DNA of 64,000 bases. Origin: an uncultured Gemmatimonadaceae bacterium (GTDB lineage: Bacteria > Gemmatimonadota > Gemmatimonadetes > Gemmatimonadales > Gemmatimonadaceae). The notes beneath the pieces are model-generated. The model saw only the letters and a list, made by a program, of their open reading frames with translations, was not told where the DNA came from and did no database searches. How positions within the stretch are numbered: the stretch's first letter is position 1; every line of letters starts with the position of its first letter. The stretch covers positions 352,001-416,000 of the forward strand of contig CAWBOC010000009.1 of assembly GCA_963790305.1 (NCBI GenBank), in the 5' to 3' direction. The position numbers were made by a program, and so were the translations under genes. Of the stretch, positions 6,528-34,676 are shown piece after piece.

Positions 6528-7142
6528 CTACGCTCCGAAGTCCATCCGCACGAAATCGTACGGAGGCCAGGGCCCGGTGATCTGAAAGCGAAGTCCGGCG
6601 GCGCGACGCGCCTGCTCCTTCACCCGATCCTCGAAATCGGCGTACTCCGCCCGGTCCACGAGATAGGCTCCGCTCAGGAGCCGCCCTTCCTCGGGGCGGA
6701 TGGGCAGCGCCGCCACGGCGAACTTTCGCAGCGCGCGAAAGCAATCGGTGGCGAGGGCCATGTGGTCGTGATCGCTGGCGTCGACATCGTCGCCGGGAAG
6801 ATCCGAGACGTGGACACGCCCCTCGCACCGTCCGTCGACGAAGTGAATGCCCTCGACCAGTGAGACGTAGTTGAGCTCCAGCCAGCGGCGGACATGATCC
6901 TCGGACTTGAAGACCGTTCCGCAGGGGGCCGGCAGAATCGTCTGCGCACGAAAGACCGCCTCCACGACTCGCTGGCAGTCGAGCATCTCGTTGTCGTCGA
7001 GCGGCGGAATCGTGTACGACGACGGGCGCACGATGGCGCCGATGTCGCGAAGCGCCACCACCGAGGTGCTATCGACGAGCGGGCGATCGTCCGCATGAGC
7101 GAGCGTCGCGACGCCGTACAGCCGAAGACCATTTACAGCCAT
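6528..7142 (-). CDS. GvpL/GvpF-family protein (orphan)
   Basis: Starts MAVNGLRLYGV. Contains TILPAPCGTVF, AYLVDR and the C-terminal signature GPWPPYDFV shared with the GvpF/L genes at 29.8-34.7 kb. Confidence 0.8.
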   Translation of the reverse strand: MAVNGLRLYGVATLAHADDRPLVDSTSVVALRDIGAIVRPSSYTIPPLDDNEMLDCQRVVEAVFRAQTILPAPCGTVFKSEDHVRRWLELNYVSLVEGIHFVDGRCEGRVHVSDLPGDDVDASDHDHMALATDCFRALRKFAVAALPIRPEEGRLLSGAYLVDRAEYADFEDRVKEQARRAAGLRFQITGPWPPYDFVRMDFGA

Positions 7143-11963: not shown

Positions 11964-14021
11964 CAGGGGCCTCCCCACGACCGCATCGTGGTGTCGCTCC
12001 GCGGCGCCCCGGCGAGAACGGTACGCGCATTCGCGAGCGGCCGAGCAAGGTCGGTTCCCGCGCGCAGGGCCGCAATGACCTCGCCTAACGCCGCGGCACC
12101 GCCAGGCGATGCGACCAGCACATCAATGCGCAGGAGCATGAGGGAGTCGATCGCAGCCTGCCGGTCTTGAGCGATGAGCACAGCCGATTGCGCGAGCCGC
12201 TGAGCGGGGGGCATCCCTTCCTGCCGGGCAAGCGGTGCACGCGTCGCCGGAGGAAGCGAGTCCCGTTTGCCGGCCAGTCGGGCACGATTGACGTCCACCA
12301 CCACTGCCGCCGGTCGCCCCCGCAGATACACCCGCTCGGCCTGGCGAGCCCGCTCGATCGCGGCGAGCGCGGCGTACATGTGCGGCAGCGCGCGGCGCGG
12401 CGCTCCCACATTGAGCTCCGATCCGGCGGACCACATTGCGTTGTACGCCTCGAGCAACGGCCGATTGATCGCCACGACCGGGCTTTCCCCCTCGGCGAAG
12501 TCCAGGACCTCCCCCGCCCCGTGCTCGGTTGCCTCCTCGGCGGCGCGCAAGAGCTCCTCCGCGGTCATTTGCCCTCGGCGCTCCTCCTCTTCGTGCGAAT
12601 GCTCCGCCCCTTCCTCCCCCGTTAGGCGACTGAAGATGATCTCCCCGACCCGGCGGCGAAGCCGTGCCTGGTCGTCCCCAATCGCGCGTGATTCACGAAC
12701 GAGCGTGTCTCGCGGCAACCGCGGCTCGCGTTGGACCAACGCCTCGGTGAGGAGAATGAGCATTCGCTGGCTGATCGCCGCCGTGTCCCCTTCGGGTGGC
12801 GGGGCGCCTTCGACGGCGACCGAGTCGTACTCGCCGAGACGCGCGATGCGTATGACGCGCGTTTCCGATGCGCCGGTGCCGGCGTCACGCGCAGGGTTGC
12901 GATCGCGCGCGACCAACCGCATGTGAACGACATCGCCGGGCACGAGGCGAAGCGAGTCGATGACGACCGCCGTCTCGATCGTGGTCTGTCGGGCACCGTC
13001 GTGCGCGCGTCGCGCGAGTACGCCCGAGCGGAAGCGAAAGCTCTCGCCCTGTCCGCTGCTGACGATGTACTCGAGCCAGCTGGAGGCCAGCCCGAGCCCG
13101 TCACGCGCCTCGCCGCGGACGGCGATGCGGCCCGTTGGCGTGCGTAGAATGGTGTCGCGCGCGGGCGTCACCATCGCGACGACCGGCGCGGAGTCGGGCC
13201 GCGCGTCGAGAACGATCAGGCGATCGAACTCGCGGTCGCGCAATCGGAGCGCGCTCGATGTCGCCGGCATGGTGAGAACGAGCTGCCACCTCGCCCCACG
13301 CGCGGTCGCGGAGAGCTCGGCGTTCCCGAGCGCGGCAACAATGCCGTCGCCGTCGCCCCGACCCTCCAGCTCAATGCGACTCCCGACAAGCGCTTCAATG
13401 GTGTGCGGCTCGTCGACGCTCGTCGTTCCGAGACTCGTATACGCGGGAGGGGATGACGCGCGCGGCAAGGGGCGTCAGACGATTCGCCTGGCGCGCGAGC
13501 CCGATCGCCGGGCGATCGACGGCGTCTCCCGCCCGCGGATCTCGAACACGCGCAATGACCCCGCGCGGCAGCGCGAGAAGCATCCCCGCTGCCAGGGCAA
13601 ATGCGACCAGCGGCGGAATCGCGGCCCGTGACACCGCCCGCGGCAAGATCGCCGACTCCCACCGGTGACGGTCGATCTCGCGCTCGAGGAGCGGGGAGGC
13701 GCGCGCCGCCTCCGCCTCCAGCGACGTGACCAGGGCGTACTGAAGCGACGGCACTCGCTCCTCGATCCAGAGCGCGGTGGCCGCGAGTGAACGGACTCGT
13801 CGCGCTCGCCAGAGAAGCGCGAGCCCGATGACTGCTGCCGTTGTCACGGCGATTGGAATCGCCAGCTGTCGAAGCTCACGGGGCAGTCCTATGACCAGAT
13901 CGAGCAACGCGACGACGCCGATGACCGCCACGCCGGCAGCCGCTGCCCATAGGACGGCGCGGACGAGGACCGCCGCCATGAGGACGAAGCGGGTACGGCG
14001 CACACGCTGATGCGGCGTCAC
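11960..14021 (-). CDS. Large membrane protein (DUF4175-like), split by a frameshift near 13450
   Basis: The N-part (TM helices, WIEERVPSLQYALVT) in ORF 13395..14216 joins the C-part (PPAYT..., DSAPVV, SQRMLI) in ORF 11960..13468 if one base is removed from the G-run at about 13449-13452. Confidence 0.7.
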
Positions 14022-15271
14022 GTTGCTACCGCGCGCCGCCGCACGCCGAGCTCGAGGATGAGTAGCAACGCCCCCGCAGCGAGGAGCCACGGTGTCGCCT
14101 GGCTGCGCGCCAGTCCAGGCCGCGCAACTGCGGATGTAGCGAGCAAGGCTCCAGCACCACGCAGCGAATTCAGTTGCATCGCGTCGAGCTCGGTGCGTGC
14201 CTCCCCTTTTTCGCACGCCGTCGCGACGAACGCCAGCAACCTGCGCGCGCTTTCGCGCAAGGGGGCGTCACCCGCTGAGGGAAAATCGAACGCGACGTCG
14301 CGGATGCATCCCTGGCGATGCTCGCGCTCGATGATGGCAGGTGCCCCGTCGGCGAAACGCGCGACGACCCGACCGGCGCTGGCATCGACCGCGCGCCTGA
14401 CGAGAGCCGCCGCCAGGACGACCTCGTGCGCGACGACGCCCTCCGCGGTCAGCGAATCCGAGTCGGTCGCTCGCGGCCAGTGGACCAGCACGCGCCCGGC
14501 GCCGCTGCCCCACGCAGAATCCGCAGCGGACGCTCCGCTTCGAACGATTCGAGTGAGAGCTGTACTCCCACTCAGGAAGGGGGCGGCAGCGGCGCTCACC
14601 GGATCCGACCGGGGGGCCCGCACGTCGATCGTGCGTGCCGCGGAGTCACCACGGGCCAACGGAAGGATGACCAGGCGCGCGCGTCCACCCCACCGCGCGC
14701 GCAGCACGAGGGTCGCTTCGTCCCACGCGTTGCCCGCGAATGGTGAGACAATGATGAGCTCAATGGAATCCGCACGATCTTGCAGCGCCGCTGCGGCCCG
14801 TTCCGCGGCGATCAACGCCGGGCTGAGCGACGCTGGCGCGCCCAATGCTGCAAGTGCCGCAGCCGTGTCGCGCACGTTGGTCGTGATCACGCGAACCAAC
14901 GTATCGAACGCGACGAGGATGTCGCCGTCGCGCACAACGGCGAGCACCGAGTCGCGCATCGCACGCTCATCGGCGACCGCGCGGGACCGGTCTACCAGCA
15001 CGATTCGGCTCGTGATTGCTCGATCAGGCTCGCGCACGGGACCCGCGAACGCCGCCGCGACGGCGACGATCGCCATCACACGCAGCGCGAGCAGCAGCCA
15101 GTCGGTCGGCCTCGGCGCTGGCGATGGCCAGCGCGCTGGGCGATCGGGAACGAACCGTGCCGTCGGCAGCACCGCGGGGCGCGGCCGTCGCCGCGCGAGG
15201 AAGTGAAGCAGCACGATGGCACCGGCGACCGCGGCGCCGGCGGCGAGGAAAATCGGGGCGAGGAATGTCAC
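14018..15271 (-). CDS. BatA domain / vWA-like membrane protein
   Basis: MTFLAPIFL...LLHFL...PTARF...LLLALR (BatA N-terminus) and LVDRSR. Confidence 0.8.
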   Translation of the reverse strand: MTFLAPIFLAAGAAVAGAIVLLHFLARRRPRPAVLPTARFVPDRPARWPSPAPRPTDWLLLALRVMAIVAVAAAFAGPVREPDRAITSRIVLVDRSRAVADERAMRDSVLAVVRDGDILVAFDTLVRVITTNVRDTAAALAALGAPASLSPALIAAERAAAALQDRADSIELIIVSPFAGNAWDEATLVLRARWGGRARLVILPLARGDSAARTIDVRAPRSDPVSAAAAPFLSGSTALTRIVRSGASAADSAWGSGAGRVLVHWPRATDSDSLTAEGVVAHEVVLAAALVRRAVDASAGRVVARFADGAPAIIEREHRQGCIRDVAFDFPSAGDAPLRESARRLLAFVATACEKGEARTELDAMQLNSLRGAGALLATSAVARPGLARSQATPWLLAAGALLLILELGVRRRAVAT

Positions 15272-16149
15272 GCCTCGCTCTCCCCTTCCCGCTCTCCGCG
15301 GGCAATGCGACGAACGACTCGATCGACGGGTTCATCCGTCACCGTCATTTCGTACTGCGCACCCGCCGCGCGCCACTCGCGCGCAAGCCACTCTCGCCAG
15401 TCCGCGAACTCGCGCATGTATGCACCGGCGGTCTCTGGCGTCAATGCGCGTTTGATCTCGACCGCCTCGGGATCGGTCGCGAGAATGGCGTCCGTCGATG
15501 GGGACAGCTCCTCCCGTGCCACGATGTGAATCGCGACCACCTCGCCGCCCTCACCGAGAAGCGCACGGGCAGGTCGGAGCAATGACGAGAGGTCACCAAG
15601 GAAGTCCGAGATCACCACCAGCCGACGCGCCGAGTGCGCTTCGTGCATGGCGGCTCCAAGATCGACGTGTCCCTGAGGGGTCGCCGCATCGAGCACGCGC
15701 GCGCAGTCAGTCACCACACCCCGCCGCGTGCGAGGCGCCGTCCTGATCGTTCCGTGCGCCGTCACCACCGCGACCGCCACCGGGTCACCGCTGGCGTGCG
15801 CGATGCTCGTGAGCCCGATCGCCAGCCGTCGCGCGTGGCTCCACTTGCCTAACGACCGCTCCGGGAACGCCATCGACGCGGATGCGTCGACGAGGAGCAG
15901 CGTCGAAAGCGTCGCCCGATCGCTGGTGATGCGGAGGTAGGCGCGGTTCGTCCGGGCGAGCAAGCGCCAGTCGAGCCGGCGCGGATCGTCGCCCTGCCGA
16001 TACGGGCGATACTCCGTGAACTCGGGCGAGACGCCGCGCAGCCGCGACCGATGCGTCCCACTGGTGCTGCTCCGCGCGACACGCCGTGCGGGCCATGTCA
16101 CCCCACGCAGGGCATCGAGCAGCTCACCGTAGCCCGCCGCCCCGCTCAT
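15268..16149 (-). CDS. DUF58 domain protein
   Basis: GTHRS...EFTEYRPYRQGDDPRRLDW, VDASASM, VISDF. Confidence 0.9.
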   Translation of the reverse strand: MSGAAGYGELLDALRGVTWPARRVARSSTSGTHRSRLRGVSPEFTEYRPYRQGDDPRRLDWRLLARTNRAYLRITSDRATLSTLLLVDASASMAFPERSLGKWSHARRLAIGLTSIAHASGDPVAVAVVTAHGTIRTAPRTRRGVVTDCARVLDAATPQGHVDLGAAMHEAHSARRLVVISDFLGDLSSLLRPARALLGEGGEVVAIHIVAREELSPSTDAILATDPEAVEIKRALTPETAGAYMREFADWREWLAREWRAAGAQYEMTVTDEPVDRVVRRIARGEREGESEA

Positions 16150-16150
16150 G

Positions 16151-17185
16151 TCAGAGCGGAACCTGGCTCCGCGGCGGCGAGACGCGGGCGAGCACCTCAT
16201 CGATCACCCGCTCGGCGGTGATCCCTTCCGCCTCGCCCGCGAACGACGGCAGCACGCGGTGGCGTAATACCGGACGAGCGACGCGGCGAATGTCGTCAGG
16301 CGAAACCGCCGCGCGGCCGGCGAGGAGCGCGTGCGCTTTCGCACCGAGGATGAGAGCCTGTCCCGCCCGCGGGCCGGCGCCCCAGCGCACCGCGCGCTTC
16401 ACCAGGTCGGGAGCCGTCGGATCGTCCGGTCGCGTCGCGCGCGCAAGCGCGGCGGCGTATCGCAGCGCCGGGTCCGAAGCGGGGACCTCGCGCACCAAAC
16501 GCTGCACCGCGATCGTTCCCTCGCCGTCGAGCACGGCCGACAGCGGCGGTGGCGCGCTCCCGGTGGTGGCGCGAAGAATGGACACCTCGTCTTCTTCCGC
16601 TGGATATCCGATGCGGATGTCGAAGAGAAAGCGATCGAGCTGCGCCTCGGGAAGTGGGTACGTGCCTTCCTGCTCGATCGGGTTCTGCGTCGCGAGCACG
16701 AAGAACGGCTCCGGCAGCCGCATCGTCTCCCCCGCCGCCGTGACGCTGTGCTCCTGCATCGCCTCCAGCAGCGCGGCCTGCGTGCGCGGCGGGGTGCGAT
16801 TGATCTCGTCGGCAAGCACGATGTTGGCGAAGATCGGTCCGTGGACGAAGCGAAACGAGCGAGCGCCCGTCGCGCTGTCCTCTTCCATGATCTCCGTCCC
16901 GGTGATGTCGCTCGGAACCAGGTCCGGCGTGAACTGAATGCGATGAAAATCGAGTCGCATTGCTTCGGCGATCGACCGGATCATGAGCGTCTTCGCGAGG
17001 CCCGGAACGCCCACGAGCAGCGCGTGCCCACCGGCCATGATCGCCATGAGGATCTCGTCCAGCACCGCGTGCTGGCCGACGATACGCCGAGCGACTTCCT
17101 CGCGGAGGCGCGCGACCGAAGCGACGACCGCCTCACGATCAGCGGCGTCCGCGGGCCGATCCCGACGCTGCACGACGGTGCTCAC
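16151..17185 (-). CDS. moxR: MoxR-family AAA+ ATPase
   Basis: GVPGLAKT, RIQFTPDLVPSDITG, DEINRTPPRTQAALLEAM, ATQNPIEQEGTYPLPEAQLDRF. Confidence 0.95.
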   Translation of the reverse strand: MSTVVQRRDRPADAADREAVVASVARLREEVARRIVGQHAVLDEILMAIMAGGHALLVGVPGLAKTLMIRSIAEAMRLDFHRIQFTPDLVPSDITGTEIMEEDSATGARSFRFVHGPIFANIVLADEINRTPPRTQAALLEAMQEHSVTAAGETMRLPEPFFVLATQNPIEQEGTYPLPEAQLDRFLFDIRIGYPAEEDEVSILRATTGSAPPPLSAVLDGEGTIAVQRLVREVPASDPALRYAAALARATRPDDPTAPDLVKRAVRWGAGPRAGQALILGAKAHALLAGRAAVSPDDIRRVARPVLRHRVLPSFAGEAEGITAERVIDEVLARVSPPRSQVPL

Positions 17186-26438: not shown

Positions 26439-28733
26439 TCACGTCCGCGGCGGCGGCGCCATCGCCACCCGCGCAACCTGCTCATCGCTCGTCAGCGTTT
26501 CGCTCGTGAGCGGCAGCGTCACGGTGAAAGTGCTGCCGCGACCGTATTGGCTGGCCACGCCAATGTCGCCACCAAGGAGCGCGATGAGCTTGCGCGTGAT
26601 GCTCAGACCCAGCCCGGTGCCGCCATACTCGCGCGTCCGCGACTGGTCGACCTGGCGGAACTCCTCGAAGATGACCTCGAGGTCCTGCGGGCGAATGCCA
26701 ATACCCGTGTCGCTCACCGCGATGCGCACGTGTTGGCCATCCGAGCGCGTGGAGATGGACACCGACCCGCGCGGGGTGAACTTCACCGCGTTCGAGACGA
26801 GGTTGAGCACGATCTGTCGAACCTTCGTGCGATCGGTCTCCATGGAGATGGGCTCAGCCGGAAGCTGCACGTTGAACTCGAGGCCCTTGCGTCGGACCAT
26901 TGGCTCCATCTGTGCCGCGACGTCGTGCAGCACGTCGTTCAGCGACAGCTTCTCGAGATGCACCGGCATCTTCCCGGCTTCGATCTTGGCCAGATCGAGA
27001 ATGTCGTTGATGAGCGCCAGCAAATGCTGCGACGACACCTGAATGCGGTGGAGCCCCTCCTCCTGCTTCGCGGTCAGATCACCGTAAATGCGATCGAGCA
27101 TGAGTGCCGTATAGCCGATCAGCGCATTGATCGGCGTCCGCAGCTCGTGCGACATGTTGGCGAGGAACTCGCTCTTGAGCCGATACGCTTTCTCGAGCTC
27201 CTGTGACTGCCACTGGAGCCGAAGGTTCCGCTCTTCGAGATCGCGCGTGGCGTCCCGCACCCGATCTTCCAGCTCGGCGCTGAACCGCTTCAGCTCCTCG
27301 TAGAGCCGCTCGTTCTCCACCTCCTTGGTCCGGTCGTGGAGCACCGAGACGATCGCCATCGGCTCCCCGCGCTCGTCGAAGATTTTCCCGGACACCATCT
27401 CCATCGGCAGCGCCGCGCCAGTCGACGGCCGCACGAGGGACACCTGCGCGCGACGGGCACGGTCGTTCGTGAGCGCGAAGTCGGAGATGAACGACGTGAC
27501 CTTCGTATCGTTGTTGCGCACCCGTTGAATCATGGTCTGGTCACGACGCGTCGCGTCGGTCAGCTCGAAGAGCTCTTCCGCCTGACGATTCATCAGGATG
27601 ATGTTCGATTTCCCATCGGTGACGAGAATCGGGTCGGCGACGTTCTGCAGAATGAGCCCCAGGCGGTCGCGCTCGCGAGACGCCTGCTGCTCGGCCAGCC
27701 GCTCGCGATGAAACTGGCGCTGGAGCTGATGAGCGGCCTGCTTGAGGTCGGTCACATCCCGCAGCACCGACAGGTACGAGCCGCGGCGCGCCATTTCCAC
27801 CGGAAGCGGATGCGCCAGCACCTCGAACAGCAGGTCGGTCCCTTCGGTGGGATCGACGAGGTTGAGCTCTCGCGGTCCGCCTCCGAAGCCGCCCGGCGCG
27901 ATCGCCTTGGAGAGAAAGGAGCTATACAGGAGGGTGTTGATCTCGACCGCGCGACGCCGGCCCTCCGAGTCGTCGGAGCGCATGCCGAGGAGCTGCTCCG
28001 CCCGCTTGTTCAGGACAACGATCGTGTTCGATGTATCGGTAATCACGATCGGATCGGGAAGCGCGTTGATGATCGCCGTCAGGAGATTCGTTTGGCGATC
28101 GAGCTGCTCGGCGTAGCGTCGCTGTTCCTCCACGGTGTAGATGTGCGAGACGATCGGGCCGGCGACGCTGGCCATCTCGGCCAGCGTCTCGACCATCGCT
28201 GGCTCGATCGTCGATTCGAGCACCGCCACCGCGAAGGGCGACAGGCCAACGCGCCGGCGTCGCTCCGTCCCAACCGGCATCAGGCCGCAATCGCGGAACC
28301 GGCCGCTGAACGTGAGCCCGGACTCGCGCGCACGAGGAAGCGAGTCGCGATGCAGCGGCTGGGGGATCGGAATGGCGGCCCACGGGGCGAAGGGAATGCC
28401 GTCGCGGTCGAGCACGGCGTCGCGACACGCCACCGCCTCGAGCGACATCGCCGAGACCACCAGTGGATGATCGTTCTCGTCGAGGTGCACCGCGACGTCC
28501 GCGCCGAGCGTTTCGGGGACACCCACGACGTGGGTCACCTTCAGCCGATGCGCGGCGCCATCGATCATCAACAGGAGCGCACGTTTCGCCCCCGCTGTGT
28601 GGGCAAGTTGACGGAGAAGCAGCTGCGCGGCCTCCGTCCACGACCGCGCATGCGCCAGCGACGTCAGCAGCCCATCAAGGTCATTGCCGGTGTGCCGCGC
28701 CGGCGGTTCGGCGGCATCCCGTCGAACCGTCAC
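26439..28733 (-). CDS. GAF-like/PAS/PAS sensor histidine kinase
   Basis: Two PAS starts (ALPDPIVITD, NVADPILVTD), FLANMSHELRTP, NLVSNAVKFT, GTGLGL. Begins 6 bp after the gvpA stop. Confidence 0.93.
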   Translation of the reverse strand: MTVRRDAAEPPARHTGNDLDGLLTSLAHARSWTEAAQLLLRQLAHTAGAKRALLLMIDGAAHRLKVTHVVGVPETLGADVAVHLDENDHPLVVSAMSLEAVACRDAVLDRDGIPFAPWAAIPIPQPLHRDSLPRARESGLTFSGRFRDCGLMPVGTERRRRVGLSPFAVAVLESTIEPAMVETLAEMASVAGPIVSHIYTVEEQRRYAEQLDRQTNLLTAIINALPDPIVITDTSNTIVVLNKRAEQLLGMRSDDSEGRRRAVEINTLLYSSFLSKAIAPGGFGGGPRELNLVDPTEGTDLLFEVLAHPLPVEMARRGSYLSVLRDVTDLKQAAHQLQRQFHRERLAEQQASRERDRLGLILQNVADPILVTDGKSNIILMNRQAEELFELTDATRRDQTMIQRVRNNDTKVTSFISDFALTNDRARRAQVSLVRPSTGAALPMEMVSGKIFDERGEPMAIVSVLHDRTKEVENERLYEELKRFSAELEDRVRDATRDLEERNLRLQWQSQELEKAYRLKSEFLANMSHELRTPINALIGYTALMLDRIYGDLTAKQEEGLHRIQVSSQHLLALINDILDLAKIEAGKMPVHLEKLSLNDVLHDVAAQMEPMVRRKGLEFNVQLPAEPISMETDRTKVRQIVLNLVSNAVKFTPRGSVSISTRSDGQHVRIAVSDTGIGIRPQDLEVIFEEFRQVDQSRTREYGGTGLGLSITRKLIALLGGDIGVASQYGRGSTFTVTLPLTSETLTSDEQVARVAMAPPPRT

Positions 28734-28739
28734 GACACG

Positions 28740-29054
28740 TTAGGTGCGATCGCGACGACTGATCTCTTCGAGTCGGCGCTTGAGGTCTGCGTTCTCGCGC
28801 ATCACGCGATCGAGGTCGGCCTCCGTCCCCGCCGACAGCTCCCGAGGCCGCGCCGACGGCGCGGTGATGCCCACCGCCTCGGAAAAGCGCAGGTACGTAT
28901 CGATCGAGGCCACCACGATGCGTGCCTCGACGGTTACGAGGTCGATGCCGACCAGCGACACTCGAACCCATGCGTCGATCACGATGCCTTTGTCGAGGAC
29001 GCGATCGAGTACGTCAATGAGAGAACTGCCACCGGGGGCACGTTCGACTGCCAT
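28740..29054 (-). CDS. gvpA: Gas vesicle structural protein GvpA with C-terminal coiled-coil extension
   Basis: [53 protein letters not shown] is canonical GvpA. Confidence 0.93.
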
Positions 29055-29060
29055 TCGCCG

Positions 29061-29402
29061 TTACTCCGTTGAAGTGGACGGTCGGCGCTTGGCGCCGCTC
29101 CGCTCGGTGAGCTGCCGCAGCTGCTGCTCGATGCGCTCCAGCCGCTTCTCGACTTCCCCCGAACCCAGCGCGCCAGCGTCGGCGGCCCGCGTCGTAAGGC
29201 GAGGGTCGTGCTGCCACCAGTTCATCCCGATCGACGCTGCCTTGTCGATCGAGCAGACGAGGAGCCGCACCTGGATGGTGAGGAGCTCCACGTTGGCGAG
29301 ATTGATCTTGATGTCACCCGCAATCACGAGTCCCTTGTCGAGCACCCGGTCGAGAATGTCGACCAGGCCGTGACTGCGCGTGGGTGCAATGTAATCAGGC
29401 AA
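29061..29402 (-). CDS. gvpJ: GvpA-family accessory protein, GvpJ-like
   Basis: [43 protein letters not shown]...NWW, plus a coiled-coil tail. Confidence 0.85.
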   Translation of the reverse strand: MPDYIAPTRSHGLVDILDRVLDKGLVIAGDIKINLANVELLTIQVRLLVCSIDKAASIGMNWWQHDPRLTTRAADAGALGSGEVEKRLERIEQQLRQLTERSGAKRRPSTSTE

Positions 29403-29437
29403 AGGCGTTCTGCTCCGGTCGGCGGGTCTCCCCGCGG

Positions 29438-29785
29438 TTAGCGCAGCCGTCCAAGCGGCCCGAGGTCGATCTCCAGGTCCTCATCGTCGAGGTTGAAAAG
29501 CCGCTTCAGCTCGTTCATGCGCTCACTCAGCCGCAGCAGCGCCAAACCGAGACGCTCGACCTCCTCGTCGGTCAGCGACCCTCCGTCCATTCGTCGGACG
29601 GCCTGGTGTTCGAGGACTTTGCGCAACACTTCGATCAACGTCAATACGAGCTTCGCCAATCCCTGCTCGACGTGCTCCGGATCGGCGTCGATCCGCTCCG
29701 GGAGCGAGCGTGCGATCTCGTGCAGCTCACGCTCGAACTCGGCTGCCGCACCCGGCGTCACCTCCGTCACGCGCTCGTCGCTCAC
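29438..29785 (-). CDS. gvpK: Gas vesicle protein GvpK
   Basis: GLAKLVLTLIEVLRKVLEHQAVRRMDGGSL...ERLGLAL...DLGPLG. Confidence 0.92.
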   Translation of the reverse strand: MSDERVTEVTPGAAAEFERELHEIARSLPERIDADPEHVEQGLAKLVLTLIEVLRKVLEHQAVRRMDGGSLTDEEVERLGLALLRLSERMNELKRLFNLDDEDLEIDLGPLGRLR

Positions 29786-30477
29786 GTGCCGATGCCCTCA
29801 GTGAAGCTATAGGGTGCCCACGGCCCTGACACCATGATCGCGAGCGCAGGGTCTTCCTCCCGGAGTGTCTGGAGCGCACCCCGGTATGCATCGATTCTTT
29901 CTCGCGGGACCAGGTGCGACAGCGTGGCCAGCGTCGATCCCGCCACCGCACCAGCGAACGCGTGGGCGCGAACGAGGTCTCCCACCGCGGCGTTCACACG
30001 ATCGCGAATTAGCCCAGCTTTCGCCAGTACGTTTCGTTCCTCGCGTTGCAGGGCAGCAACCCGCTCGAGATACCGACGCCCCCGCTCGGCGCCTTGCCCA
30101 ACCCGCGCCTTCCCAGTGGGCCCGGGTGCAGGCACGAGCATCCGCACGGTCATCTCCACGGCCCCCTCGACCCTCTCCAGCGCCGCCTCCAACAGCGCGC
30201 GGCGCTCCGACAACGCCGCGCGGAGCTCGTTCTCGCCCGCCACGATCTGGCCGAACCGCGCCGGGAGCGGCGTCTCGCTCTCGAGCGCGGCCCGGACAAC
30301 GCGATCGTGGTCGCGCGCGCGCCCCGGCGAGGGCACGACTGTCGTCGCCGCGGACTCGCTCACCCACGCGCCGAGCCCACTCAGGTCGATTGCACGCACC
30401 GGCGCACCATCGATCCCCGGCAGGTTGGGGGGCGGCTCACGTGTCGCGCGGAGGATGCAGTAGAGGTAGATCGCCAA
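29782..30477 (-). CDS. GvpL/GvpF-family gas vesicle protein
   Basis: YLYCI, HDRVV, LPARFG, GRRYL, SGPWAPYSF. Confidence 0.88.
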   Translation of the reverse strand: MAIYLYCILRATREPPPNLPGIDGAPVRAIDLSGLGAWVSESAATTVVPSPGRARDHDRVVRAALESETPLPARFGQIVAGENELRAALSERRALLEAALERVEGAVEMTVRMLVPAPGPTGKARVGQGAERGRRYLERVAALQREERNVLAKAGLIRDRVNAAVGDLVRAHAFAGAVAGSTLATLSHLVPRERIDAYRGALQTLREEDPALAIMVSGPWAPYSFTEGIGT

Positions 30478-30694
30478 GCGGATGCGAGAGCCGTCCGCTG
30501 ACGCCGACGGTCCTCCTCTCCAGAGTCTCGAGTGCGCTGATGATCACCGACAGACTCACCGAGATGAGATCAATTCCGGCGATCGAGATGATCACGTCTC
30601 CGGTGATCACAACCCCTTTGTCGAGCACGTGACTGAGCAGATCGCTCAGCACGAGCGCGTCATCGTCGGCCGGCTCCAGTGGTGCGTCCGTCAC
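30437..30694 (-). CDS. GvpA-family accessory protein (GvpS/GvpM-like)
   Basis: LSDLLSHVLDKGVVITGDVIISIAGIDLI. GTG start overlaps the upstream TGA. Confidence 0.82.
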   Translation of the reverse strand: MTDAPLEPADDDALVLSDLLSHVLDKGVVITGDVIISIAGIDLISVSLSVIISALETLERRTVGVSGRLSHPLGDLPLLHPPRDT

Positions 30695-31503
30695 GGCGTA
30701 CCCGCATCCGCGGGCGCTCGCACGAAGTGATACGGCGGCCACGGCCCGGTAAAATCGAACCGGAAGCCCCGGGGCTCGTGCTCGCGAACGATCGCGGTCA
30801 GCGACTCCTGAAAGGGCGCCAGTGCACCGCGTCTCACCAGAAAGAATGCGTTGAGGATCGCGACACCCGGCGTGTCATCGCGCCCCTTTGCCGGGAGTGG
30901 CTCGCGCACCGCTTCGAGCGCCAGCGGCGCGAGCGCCTGAAACGCTTCGCGAGCGACGTCGGCGGCAACCCGCTTGAGCTCGGTGCGGCGCTCCGCCTCC
31001 AGCTTGCGCTGCAGCAGATAACGCTGGCCCGGACTCGCCTCCCGCGCCTGTCGCTCGAGTCCTTCGACGGTGGAACTCAGAGCGGCCATGTGCTGGCTGA
31101 GCACCTCATCGAGCCGAAAGACGCGAAGACCGTATTCCTCGCCAACGCCGACTCGCTCGAAAGTCGCGCGCAGCTCTGCCGCTCGCTCGCGGAGCATGTC
31201 CCGCACGCGCGACTCATCATGAAAAAGGGTGAAAATGGGAAGCGGGATGACCGGCCCCCGATCACCCGCCCACGTCACGACCGCATCGTGTGCTGAGGCG
31301 CGAGGAGCCACCCACCCCACCTCTTCCGTGAGGACCTCCACACGCTCGGGCGCATATGCGTTCGTATCGACACTCGAGACGAGCGCCGCCATGTCGCCCT
31401 CGATCACCACGCGCACTGCCGTGTCATCGATGCCCGCCGGTGCCCCCGATGCCTTGAGGGACGCTGGGGCCACGGCGTAGGCGTACAGAACGCGATCAGG
31501 CAA
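30691..31503 (-). CDS. GvpL/GvpF-family gas vesicle protein
   Basis: LYAYAV, AHDAVV, PGQRYL, LNAFFLV, TGPWPPYHF. The TTG start at 31503 is inferred. Confidence 0.88.
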   Translation of the reverse strand: MPDRVLYAYAVAPASLKASGAPAGIDDTAVRVVIEGDMAALVSSVDTNAYAPERVEVLTEEVGWVAPRASAHDAVVTWAGDRGPVIPLPIFTLFHDESRVRDMLRERAAELRATFERVGVGEEYGLRVFRLDEVLSQHMAALSSTVEGLERQAREASPGQRYLLQRKLEAERRTELKRVAADVAREAFQALAPLALEAVREPLPAKGRDDTPGVAILNAFFLVRRGALAPFQESLTAIVREHEPRGFRFDFTGPWPPYHFVRAPADAGTP

Positions 31504-33371
31504 CGGTGTCCTCGTCGATCGGTCGCCAGGCGGCACACCAGCTTCGAAGCGCAGGGGCGCCCTGCGGCGCCGGCAATGCCATGGGAGCTTCAAACTGACG
31601 CGGGGTGCCCTCCCCGGAAAGGGGAGAGAACGGGAAGGTGACGCGGTTCCAGATCAGCCCGCCGACGAACATCCCTCGCGCGCGACAGGCTTCGATCAGC
31701 CGGCGACTCTCATCTCGAACCACGGGCTCATCGTTTCCGACGACGAGAATCACCGCGCGCTCGGGGTTGCCCATGAGCTCCCGGAGCGCCCGCGTGCGCT
31801 TGGCGAAGTCGAGCATCTCCTTCGCCGCTTCTCCGAGGCCGGCCACCTCCTTGTATTCGAGCATGAGACGCATGAGACGGTGCGTCCACGAGAGCGCCAG
31901 CGCGGGCATCTCGAGCAGGCGGAGCAGGTGCCCGGTCGGCGCGGGATCGACGATCACGTATGCGTACCGGCCGTCAGCGAGAAGCTCGCCTAACGTGACC
32001 AGCGCGTACAGCTCATCGATTCCCGGTGGCGTCAGCGCGAGAAGATCGCGCGCAACGGCCCGGTCGTGCGACAGATCGAGCGCGCCCGTCATCAAGCGGT
32101 CGAATATGGCATCGACACGCTCGGCGTAGTTGGCGCGAAACCGCTCGAACGCCAGCGTGGCGTCCATCTGCCGCGCCCGACAGCCCGGGGCGCCCTCGAC
32201 GTCAATGTCGGCATCGGGCACGGGCTGCCCCAGTGCATCCGCGACCGATGGGGCCGGGTCAGACGACACGACGAGTATCGGCTCCTCGGGCCGAGCCAGC
32301 GACACACCGAGCGCGCAGGCGGCTGTCGTCTTTCCGACGCCGCCTTTCCCGGCGACGATCGTCAGCGGTCGCAGCAGGCTCGCGACCGCCGGATGCACCG
32401 GCGATCGCGGCCGGTCGATGATCCGCCCGGTGATCGTGACGGGCTCAGGTGCCCGGCTCGCGCCACCCACGAACAACGCCTCGATCTCCGCCAGCCCTTT
32501 CGGGGATCGTGCGCGGCGAGGGATGCGCACCCGCGGCGCGTCCGGGGCGATCGCAGAGAGTTGCTTCAAGAGCTCGCGATGCCCGATTTCGGCGGCCGCC
32601 GGCATCGCATTGACAATGACCGCCCCCACGCGAATCGCCATCGTCTGGAGCGACTGCGCATACCGCACGGTCTCCGCCACGACCATGGGCTCGAGCCGTG
32701 TGACGAGGGCCACGGCGGTCCGTTCACCATCGGCGAGCGTTGCTCGCAAGCGCATCCACGCGCTCCTGCATGGCGGCGAGGAACGCATCGGCGGCGTCGG
32801 TGCGGTAGCGGCGTGCCAGCATCTGTACCATGAAGCGGTGCTTCTGCTGCATCACATCGAGCAGCGCGATCACGGCACGAAAGGTCTCTGGAAGCGCGAG
32901 AAGGCGCAGCGTGTGACCGGTGGGGGCCGTGTCGACGACGATGCGACGCCATCGCGAATCGCGCTCCAGCTCGAGCAACGCGAGCACGGCCATCGCTTCG
33001 TCCGCCCCCGGCAGCGCATCGTCGACGAACCCGGCCAGCTCATCGGGGCTGAGGTAGGTGCCGCGGTCGAGGATCGCGATCACCACCGAGCGCCATTGCT
33101 GCAGGAAGGCGTCGCGCTCATGCTGCGCGTCGAGCTGCATGGCGAACAGCCGCTCACGTCCGGCGACGGGTCCCGGCGTCACCCCGACGACCGCGCCTAA
33201 CGCGGCACCCAGGGAGCGCGCCGGATCAGTCGAGAGCAGCAGGGTCGTGTCGCCGGCCGCGGCGCTCCGCGCCGCAAGCGCGGCCGAGCACGTCGTCTTC
33301 CCGACTCCCCCCTTGCCCGCTACCAGAATCCATCTCGGGAGGGACTGCAGTAGCGGGTCGAGAAGGCTCAC
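31496..33371 (-). CDS. Tandem-domain ArsA/Get3-family ATPase, split by a frameshift near 32749
   Basis: Two GKGGVGKTT motifs, STDPA/SSDPA, PGADE/PGIDE, DTAPTGH/DPAPTGH. Removing one base joins ...ERVDA to LRATLADG... Confidence 0.87.
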
Positions 33372-33673
33372 TCCTCGGGGGGAGCTTCCCGCGCGACACG
33401 GACCGGACCGCCCGGCGCCGACATCCCGAAGTGCTCACGCCAGGCACGCACCTCCCGCAGCTGCTGCATCAGGCGCGCCTCACGCTGGGCGTACTCCTCA
33501 TCATCAATGTCGCCAAGCTCGAGGAGCATCTGCAGCTCCATGAGCTCCTGCTTGATCGGGGAGTCGTCGGTCAGCTCGGTCTCCACGACCTTCTGCACCT
33601 GATCGAGCGACCACCGGATGCCCGCGACTGGGCCGGTGACTGGAAAGAAGAGGAGCTTGGAGAGGATGCCCAT
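33368..33673 (-). CDS. gvpG: Gas vesicle protein GvpG
   Basis: LLFFPVTGPVAGIRW...IKQELMELQMLLELGDIDDEEYAQREARL. Confidence 0.88.
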   Translation of the reverse strand: MGILSKLLFFPVTGPVAGIRWSLDQVQKVVETELTDDSPIKQELMELQMLLELGDIDDEEYAQREARLMQQLREVRAWREHFGMSAPGGPVRVAREAPPEE

Positions 33674-33677
33674 GACT

Positions 33678-33821
33678 GGGGGTCAGAGTCAGGAGTCAGG
33701 GGTCAGTGGTGGAAGGCGCTGTGAGCGCTGGAGAAGGGCTGGAGTAGCGCTCGGATTCTTAGCGCTTGTCCAGCGCCCTCCGCGCTTTTCCAGCGCCTGT
33801 CCATCCCTGACTCCTGACCCC
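33678..33821. repeat. Chimeric palindromic element: family-B heptamer outer arms enclosing family-C repeats
   Basis: GGGGTCA/GGAGTCA...TGACTCC/TGACCCC outside; GCGCTGGAGAAG...CTTTTCCAGCGC inside. Confidence 0.88.
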
Positions 33822-33827
33822 TTTTCG

Positions 33828-34676
33828 CTATTCAGCCTTCTCCAGCTTGAGCTTGATGTTCACGAAGTTGTACGGTGGCCATGGACCCGTGTACTTGAAG
33901 GTCAGAAGGTCCTCGTACTTTCGCGATACCTCGCGAACTTTCTCATCGAAATCCTTCTCGCGGTGCCGCTCCACGAGAAAGGCCGCGTTCATGATCATGC
34001 GATCGCCGATCGGCTTGTTGCTGCGACTGGCGACGGCGACCTCCTTCAACGTCTCATGAATATCGGAGACGAACGAGTTCCCGGTGTCTTCGAGCGCGCC
34101 CTCGACCAGTCTGCCGAGCTGCATGCGCGCGAAGTAGGTCGAGCTCTGCGTGTTGCGCGTGATCTCGTCCTTGAGACGCCGGATCTCATCGTTCGAGCGC
34201 TCGAGGTCGGCGATGACCTTGTCGCGATCCCAGAGCACCTTGAGCCCGAATTCGATCTTGTCCTGCATCTTGTCGAGCACGTCACTGAACGCCTGATACG
34301 TCGATCGCAGCAGCTCGCCGACGTCGTCCTCGGAACGAAACACCGTTCCGAACGACATCGGGATCACCGTGTGCTCACGCATCACCGTCTCGTTCACGAA
34401 CTCATGCGCCAGCACGTTCTCGCGCGTGGGATCGTAGATCACGATCGGCGTGTCGCTGACCACCGCGCTGAGATCCTTGTAGTGCACCGTATACACGCGG
34501 TTCGCGCCATCCCCAATGCCAATCGGTCCGAAGTCGCGCGCGCTGTCGAGGCGGATGATGCAGTAGACGTACTTTCCTCCCTCGCCACGCCCGTCGGCGC
34601 CCTTGGCGACCGAGTCGTCGCCGCGACGCGATTCTGCTTCCACGGTACGACCGTCTCCCGAGACCATCCCGTCCAT
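33828..34676 (-). CDS. gvpF: GvpF/GvpL-family gas vesicle protein
   Basis: KYVYCII, AVVSD, AHEFVNE, VIPMSFGTVF, EFGLKV, NAAFLV, TGPWPPYNFV. Start uncertain. Confidence 0.9.
   Translation of the reverse strand: MDGMVSGDGRTVEAESRRGDDSVAKGADGRGEGGKYVYCIIRLDSARDFGPIGIGDGANRVYTVHYKDLSAVVSDTPIVIYDPTRENVLAHEFVNETVMREHTVIPMSFGTVFRSEDDVGELLRSTYQAFSDVLDKMQDKIEFGLKVLWDRDKVIADLERSNDEIRRLKDEITRNTQSSTYFARMQLGRLVEGALEDTGNSFVSDIHETLKEVAVASRSNKPIGDRMIMNAAFLVERHREKDFDEKVREVSRKYEDLLTFKYTGPWPPYNFVNIKLKLEKAE

Follow-up and report, generated by a model that had tools for sequence, protein, structure and literature searches.

Gas-vesicle (gvp) operons containing ArsA homologues were described by Castillo and Saier in 2010 (PMC2963123, clusters 4 and 6, including Acidobacteria bacterium Ellin345), and clusters without gvpN are also in print. 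Here, we analyze a gvp operon with both features, found on the minus strand at positions 26439-34676 of a stretch of 64,000 nucleotides (nt), hereafter the window, from an uncultured Gemmatimonadaceae bacterium (assembly GCA_963790305.1, contig CAWBOC010000009.1, positions 352,001 to 416,000). It is a real and conserved gas-vesicle operon that lacks GvpN. Since the ATPase link and GvpN-less clusters have already been published and function is read from genes alone, the reach of the finding is limited; what is new is the retention of the operon's kinase after loss of the gvp genes, and a form of only six genes that has no ATPase and in which GvpS and GvpK are fused. An earlier interpretation made from the window's letters, referred to below as the sequence-only reading, overstated the novelty in view of PMC2963123 and of the Streptomyces coelicolor cluster without gvpN (PMC4982088). 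A search by title and beginning of abstract, with subscription journals mostly outside its coverage, found no description of gas vesicles in Gemmatimonadota.

Like the protein encoded here, the homologues in PMC2963123 are tandem ArsA proteins of ~630 amino acids (aa) inside a gvp operon, and the acidobacterial example has two L/F genes and one each of J, K and M, with gvpN not named in the available text. Unlike here, that study is bioinformatic only and its table does not include Gemmatimonadota; nor are a kinase link, dispensability of the ATPase or an S-K fusion among its available contents. The gvpOAFG-JLSK cluster of S. coelicolor likewise comes from a soil bacterium, has neither gvpN nor gvpC and shares the A, F, G, J, L, S and K core, but it differs in having gvpO and two extra genes, a divergent GvpA (called significantly different in PMC4982088), and a listed gene order that includes neither an ATPase nor a kinase (PMC9501494, PMC4982088). 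The minimal set of Bacillus megaterium is B, N, F, G, L, S, K and J (PMC11223475). Its pNL29 cluster, gvpBNFGLSKJ, has the same essential families as the window and the same F-G-L-S-K-J order, GvpR and GvpO being dispensable (PMC11223475, PMC11445434), whereas in the window gvpN is naturally absent, gvpA comes last and carries a coiled-coil-like tail, and a second gvpL is present. Finally, Serratia sp. ATCC 39006 has regulatory genes (gvrA-gvrB-gvrC) in its gvp cluster together with three GvpA and three GvpF/L paralogues, as here (PMC4982088, PMC6617781).

Organization and conservation of the operon

The ten genes run in the order gvpF-gvpG-arsA-gvpL-gvpS-gvpL-gvpK-gvpJ-gvpA-kinase, all on the minus strand and each over its Pfam cut-off, which bears out the order and the overlapping junctions given in the sequence-only reading. 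The families present are GvpL/F three times (PF06386), GvpG, ArsA_ATPase, Gas_vesicle three times (PF00741), GvpK and, for the kinase, PAS-PAS-HisKA-HATPase. The individual features, in which dN/dS is the ratio of nonsynonymous to synonymous substitution rates, are:

33828..34676, minus strand: gvpF, 282 aa, GvpL/F family, likely a GvpA chaperone (PF06386, 264.8 bits; dN/dS 0.02-0.04)
33674..33827, minus strand: spacer of 154 nt forming one long hairpin, similar to repetitive extragenic palindromic (REP) elements (-88.8 kcal/mol, z -8.9)
33368..33673, minus strand: gvpG, 101 aa (PF05120, 78.5 bits)
31496..33371, minus strand: two-domain ArsA/Get3-fold ATPase, split here by an extra base (PF02374 in both pieces)
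30691..31503, minus strand: gvpL1, 270 aa, GvpL/F family (PF06386, 187.1 bits; start inferred from congeners)
30437..30694, minus strand: gvpS/M-like GvpA paralogue, 85 aa (PF00741, 50.1 bits; top NCBIfam model GvpM, below its cut-off)
29782..30477, minus strand: gvpL2, 231 aa, GvpL/F family (PF06386, 155.1 bits)
29438..29785, minus strand: gvpK, 115 aa (PF05121, 112.3 bits)
29061..29402, minus strand: gvpJ, 113 aa, GvpA paralogue with a helical tail (PF00741, 60.8 bits; dN/dS 0.00-0.02)
28740..29054, minus strand: gvpA, major shell protein, 70-aa core plus coiled-coil-like tail (NF006874, 113.9 bits, cut-off 100)
26439..28733, minus strand: soluble GAF-like-PAS-PAS-coiled-coil-HisKA-HATPase kinase, 764 aa (Pfam; AlphaFold 2 model)
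6528..7142, minus strand: detached short GvpL/F-family gene, 204 aa, outside the operon (PF06386, 107.6 bits)

Five junctions overlap by 4-41 nt (gvpG-arsA, arsA-gvpL1, gvpL1-gvpS, gvpS-gvpL2 and gvpL2-gvpK), and the gvpK-gvpJ-gvpA-kinase junctions are gaps of 35, 6 and 6 nt. The accessory set of GvpF, G, L, J, S/M and K is complete, and gene order is identical in all seven congeners with full-length loci. Against three congeners, dN/dS is 0.00-0.27 for the ten coding regions: all tested genes are under purifying selection, and the locus is not decayed, which the sequence-only reading had named as one way in which it might be wrong.

The core of GvpA is canonical by its NF006874 score, and the protein matches the solved shells 8GBS (E 1.3e-25) and 7R1C (E 7.8e-22) of the PDB. 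V35, G36 and I37, as well as R83, E87, N88 and L91 in the tail, are invariant in 21/21 aligned GvpA sequences; V35 and I37 are seam residues named in PMC10903477. Across 123 loci with 78 distinct cores, the tail motif is found in 102 of the 104 Gemmatimonadota-set loci, 2 of the 15 GvpN-less Acidobacteriota loci and none of the 4 GvpN-bearing ones.

The closest named homologues are from Gemmatimonadaceae, in agreement with the Gemmatimonadota origin proposed in the sequence-only reading. Contigs from soil metagenomes (two studies) differ from the locus by 1-4 positions per 200-250 nt, none of them spanning it, and such near-identical short contigs imply that soil is home to close relatives. 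After the actinomycete clusters, this intact and strongly conserved cluster, which has a canonical GvpA and no GvpN, offers a second, cleaner test case for gvp function in soil bacteria.

GvpN, GvpO and GvpC in the genome and its relatives

The genome holding the window (G000) is 94.33% complete and consists of 13 contigs. Profile searches of it gave a best GvpN score of 30.4 bits (TIGR02640, cut-off 266.8), no match for GvpO (PF05800) and no match for GvpC (PF01304), the GvpC search having no positive control and a model that covers one repeat type only. Hence, the absence of gvpN and gvpO pointed out earlier for the window extends to the genome at this completeness, and that of gvpC probably does as well. 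With two annotated GvpN proteins as queries, the matches in G000 were MoxR-like genes only, at 23-29% identity. One MoxR gene within the window (16151-17185) was considered as a hidden GvpN and ruled out, as it has its own DUF58/BatA partners. It is part of an ordinary MoxR-vWA set of MoxR AAA+, DUF58 and BatA-type genes (14018-17185, minus strand), 10 kb from the operon.

The lack of GvpN and GvpO is lineage-wide: searches of 35 relatives with gvp genes (29 from the phylum draw and 6 from a separate search) found neither gene in any of them. As a positive control for both searches we used 22 gvpK-bearing Acidobacteriota, out of 401 genomes from the phylum of genome G414: GvpN was over the cut-off in 5 and GvpO was found in 2, so that GvpN over the cut-off is missing in 17 of the 22. 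Of 401 genomes drawn from the phylum, 30 have GvpA-family genes; within the family, the figure is 23 of 94. Several of the genome counts in this study (GvpA spread, GvpN and GvpO, ATPase, short GvpL/F, kinase) include the unpublished genome G015, and some also G118.

With GvpN absent from G000 and from all 35 relatives, the locus is not a canonical cylinder-forming buoyancy cluster. Nor is it an actinomycete-type cluster, in which GvpO is present and GvpN absent, as GvpO is found neither in G000 nor in the relatives.

Predicted product of the operon

The gene content corresponds to the B. megaterium minimal set minus gvpN, and bicones are reported from gvpN mutants. On these grounds, we think it somewhat probable that the only product of the operon, devoid of GvpN, GvpO and GvpC, is a small gas-filled shell of biconical shape that would not make the cell buoyant. 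Serratia gvpN mutants produce bicones and do not float (PMC4982088), and PMC11445434 and PMC10903477 likewise describe bicones in the absence of GvpN; small bicones, as already put forward in the sequence-only reading, are a reasonable extrapolation from gvpN mutants (PMC4982088, PMC11445434). By analogy with other organisms, GvpF and GvpG would hold newly made GvpA and the cone tips would be seeded by GvpS, GvpK, GvpJ and GvpL; because the AAA+ elongation motor is missing, growth would halt at the bicone. The tail of GvpA probably extends outward from the shell surface, and it may substitute for GvpC by cross-linking subunits or vesicles. Bacteria that form bicones naturally could be of practical use, given the current engineering of 50-nm vesicles for ultrasound imaging or related ultrasound work (bioRxiv 10.1101/2023.06.27.546433).

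Several points weigh against small bicones. The best-studied GvpN-less cluster, that of S. coelicolor, has never been shown to make vesicles (PMC4982088, PMC5839063) and is not among the clusters with detectable vesicles in E. coli (PMC10344784). A gvpN mutant of the B. megaterium cluster had no vesicles by electron microscopy in one study (PMC11223475), and Halobacterium requires GvpO (PMC9501494). In addition, the 35-residue tail of GvpA could disturb assembly, and most of the phylum is without the cluster (30/401 carry it). The whole chain of the ATPase model best fits the pseudo-dimer of arsenite-pump ArsA (9NBW; Z 32.3, root-mean-square deviation (rmsd) 3.0, 516 aligned), hence a Get3-like role does not follow from fold alone. 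Lastly, the case is built from gene content, order and conservation, and the shells are a prediction.

It is less likely, though a serious alternative, that no gas-filled shell is made and that the cell retains its Gvp proteins for a different task (a stress aggregate, storage or a signalling scaffold), as suspected in actinomycetes. The gvp genes of S. coelicolor are expressed and salt-induced, yet neither vesicles nor a buoyancy phenotype is reported in the available text of PMC5839063. The extra helical tails on GvpA and GvpJ point the same way, as does the short GvpL/F-family gene kept in genomes without a GvpA-family gene, which implies that the fold can act without a shell. However, the GvpA core, including its seam residues, is nearly invariant across the 104 Gemmatimonadota-set loci (duplicates included), and the GvpA of the window passes the NCBIfam GvpA cut-off, unlike the divergent GvpA of S. 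coelicolor (PMC4982088). Furthermore, the subfamilies that are essential for shell seeding elsewhere are all kept, even in the most reduced, fused form of the locus.

The ArsA/Get3-fold ATPase

An improbable alternative to small bicones is that ordinary long vesicles are formed, the role of GvpN falling to the tandem ArsA/Get3 ATPase or to an unlinked AAA+ protein. Of 61 long ATPase copies (duplicates included), 58 have both Walker A motifs intact, the ATPase gene overlaps gvpG and gvpL1, and the MoxR-type AAA+ genes of G000 have the low identity to real GvpN given above. However, the ATPase is not a constant component. Among the best 80 of 274 GvpK-confirmed stretches, it is present in 34 loci and missing in 41, with 5 undecidable, and the ATPase query has no match in 16 of the 35 relative genomes. 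On a quick GvpF tree of 85 rows its presence changes 6 times, at least 3 of these changes being forced by well-supported branches, and it was lost several times with no replacement in the locus. Moreover, it adjoins gvpN in two of the five GvpN-bearing loci (L134 and L136) and occurs alongside gvpN in clusters of PMC2963123, and the MoxR gene of the window has partners of its own. Repeated loss and co-occurrence with gvpN thus rule against the ATPase as a replacement for GvpN. It is an optional part of the cluster; the sequence-only reading, which treated a "built-in" ATPase as a defining part, does not hold for the 41 of 75 decidable loci that lack it or for the loci where it stands beside gvpN. 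We consider it likely that, in an operon making small bicones, the ATPase would act as an accessory holdase for the hydrophobic GvpA, GvpJ and GvpS chains and not as a GvpN substitute.

The protein has the features of the published gvp-associated two-domain ArsA class: two domains, ~630 aa, a position between gvpG and gvpL, and no ars genes. Its top sequence match is Chlamydomonas ARSA1 (5ZME), its second piece scores 162.8 bits against TIGR00345 (cut-off 135), and domain 1 of its model (predicted local distance difference test score (pLDDT) 85) superimposes on TRC40 3ZQ6 with Z 24.8, rmsd 2.2 and 266 aligned. Identity as an arsenite-pump ArsA was rejected, the TIGR04291 scores being 83-89 bits against a cut-off of 650. 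The two first-domain cysteines of E. coli ArsA are metalloid ligands. A role in arsenic resistance was also rejected: in the alignment with 1F48 there is no Cys opposite these two residues, and the ATPase lacks conserved cysteines other than in the Walker A helix. Searching plasmids with the ATPase query gave no match.

The ATPase is ~624 aa in congeners and a single open reading frame in 7/7 of those with a full-length locus. In the window, an additional base near 32749-32750 breaks it into two frames; the sequence-only reading was right about a two-domain protein and missed the split. The extra base is missing in 5/5 aligned congeners and in a 218-nt soil contig that has 4 other differences. 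Two further frameshifts specific to this assembly, relative to all four congeners compared, lie in unrelated genes of the same 18 kb, and the ATPase split is therefore likely an assembly error. One of these is in an M28 peptidase gene (~36071), and the other (~24525) is in a gene that is presumably thioredoxin-reductase-like. Broken frames in this genome call for caution. It is very improbable that the gvp block persists as a silent, slowly decaying relic: this assembly has a frameshift in the ATPase gene and the block is deleted or decayed in six relatives (G186, G234, G110, G288, G127 and G204), but dN/dS is far below 1, the seven congeners with full-length loci share one gene order, and the two additional assembly-specific frameshifts hit unrelated genes.

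Locus forms and the GvpS-GvpK fusion

The 75 loci decidable for the ATPase fall into three forms: full (34), ATPase-less (6) and reduced (35). In the reduced form there is no ATPase and no second GvpL, and GvpS is fused to GvpK; gvpL2 is present in 42 of 79 decidable loci and missing from the fused form. The fusion is found in 37 of the 80 loci, gvpS and gvpK being separate in the window, and it is one reading frame in 10/10 loci printed. The GvpF tree has 38 fused rows without the ATPase; 37 of them fall into a single group with support 90, and so are not independent. L040 is the sole locus with both the fusion and the ATPase, an exception that rests on the unpublished genome G118.

A comparable arrangement is known in Anabaena flos-aquae, in which GvpK is fused to a GvpA-like (GvpJ/M/S-type) domain; that cluster differs in having gvpN and gvpC (PMC10903477). 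The natural GvpS-GvpK fusion fits a proposed S-K-J seeding complex. The six-gene fused form would rank among the smallest natural sets for the study of vesicle seeding. A bolder proposal, which we regard as a long shot, is that soil Gemmatimonadota and Acidobacteriota build ATPase-free, nanometre-scale gas bicones from sets as small as these six genes (gvpF-G-L-S::K-J-A) for a use other than flotation, for example as an element sensitive to pressure or desiccation, the coiled-coil-tailed GvpA of which would be read by the adjacent GAF-PAS-PAS kinase.

The PAS kinase

The kinase is soluble (maximum hydropathy 1.32) and has an intact H-box. Its AlphaFold 2 model (pLDDT 80, predicted template modelling score 0.38) has GAF look-alikes at 0.97, and a fold search returned generic kinases and phytochromes. 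It follows gvpA in 70/70 decidable loci (29/30 loci in another count) and is likely co-transcribed with the gvp genes.

GvrA, GvrB and GvrC of Serratia are an NtrC-type activator, a kinase and a receiver, respectively. A similar sigma54-GvpL/F-PAS kinase-receiver module is found on a Methylocella tundrae plasmid, the kinase of which is 23% identical to that of the window over 444 residues. Both of these clusters have gvpN, whereas the kinase of the window has no adjacent receiver or activator. Neither in the window nor in 104 of 110 loci (duplicates included) was a response regulator found close to the cluster. A receiver follows the kinase in several Acidobacteriota loci and in G233, which also has a sigma-54 activator. 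The G233 locus (L033:5113-13805) is rearranged into a sigma-54 activator and gvpJ-gvpA-kinase-receiver-gvpF-G-L-S-L-K-receiver; both trees place it with Acidobacteriota loci, which may reflect transfer or a binning error. In a Pyrinomonadaceae locus (L119:11581-12456), a receiver-STAS protein comes after the kinase, which suggests a partner-switching output.

The PAS region of the kinase matches 34 of the 401 phylum genomes. Of these, 28 belong to the 30 genomes that have GvpA-family genes, and the other 6 have no GvpA-family match. Five of the 6 were inspected, and in them the kinase is still beside DUF456 or the M28 peptidase and the gvp block is gone. In G234 (L149:5320-7743) an in-frame deletion has left a scar that fuses the initial ~45 codons of gvpF with the kinase. 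G204 has no gvpK but still carries gvpF, along with a decayed gvpA. On the kinase tree, the kinases without a gvp block occupy four positions within the gvp-linked ones. Their dN/dS against gvp-linked sisters is 0.11-0.14 (G186, G234), compared with 0.10 for gvp-linked pairs; G110 is saturated, and the G288-G127 pair gives 0.35.

An exclusively vesicle-dedicated kinase is ruled out by its retention under like selection after deletion of the gvp block, together with its lack of an adjacent regulator. With no cognate receiver in the cluster and with kinases outside gvp loci, this is not a dedicated module of the Serratia Gvr type. Of the two-component control expected in the sequence-only reading, the PAS kinase within the unit stands, and its dedication to the vesicles is weakened. 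The kinase probably derives from a regulatory module linked to gvp, the response regulator of which has since left the locus. Its regulon is likely a wider one, in which the gvp block would be a part that can be deleted.

A free-standing paralogue of the kinase is present in G000 (L153:6731-8974, contig C5), 48% identical in the first PAS region and with no gvp genes nearby. The top G000 match to the cluster-linked receivers, at C9:466694-467383 with 48-50% identity, is a lead only. In G151 (L154:5933-8960) the main cluster begins at gvpG, and gvpF is found elsewhere, beside a second copy of the kinase, which hints at a link between GvpF and the kinase. Plasmid searches with the PAS region gave no match.

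Control signals and a detached GvpL/F gene

A sigma-54 promoter pattern, for which there was no positive control, was found upstream of gvpF in 0/88 loci and upstream of gvpJ in 0/4, and scans for sigma-70 promoters and terminators were at chance level (2 vs. 1.4 and 6 vs. 5.1, respectively). None of 200 shuffles was as stable as the gvpF-gvpG hairpin. Its arms are short and repeated in the genome (149 short blastn hits in G000), and the spacer is variable in congeners and 8-40 nt long in many other genera.

The fourth and shorter GvpL/F-family gene of the window (6528-7142), overlooked in the sequence-only reading, overlaps the stop codon of corA and lies upstream of a Ser/Thr kinase gene. 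It is present at high score in 15 of 31 genomes, four of which have no GvpA-family match, and the GvpL/F fold may thus have a vesicle-independent job.

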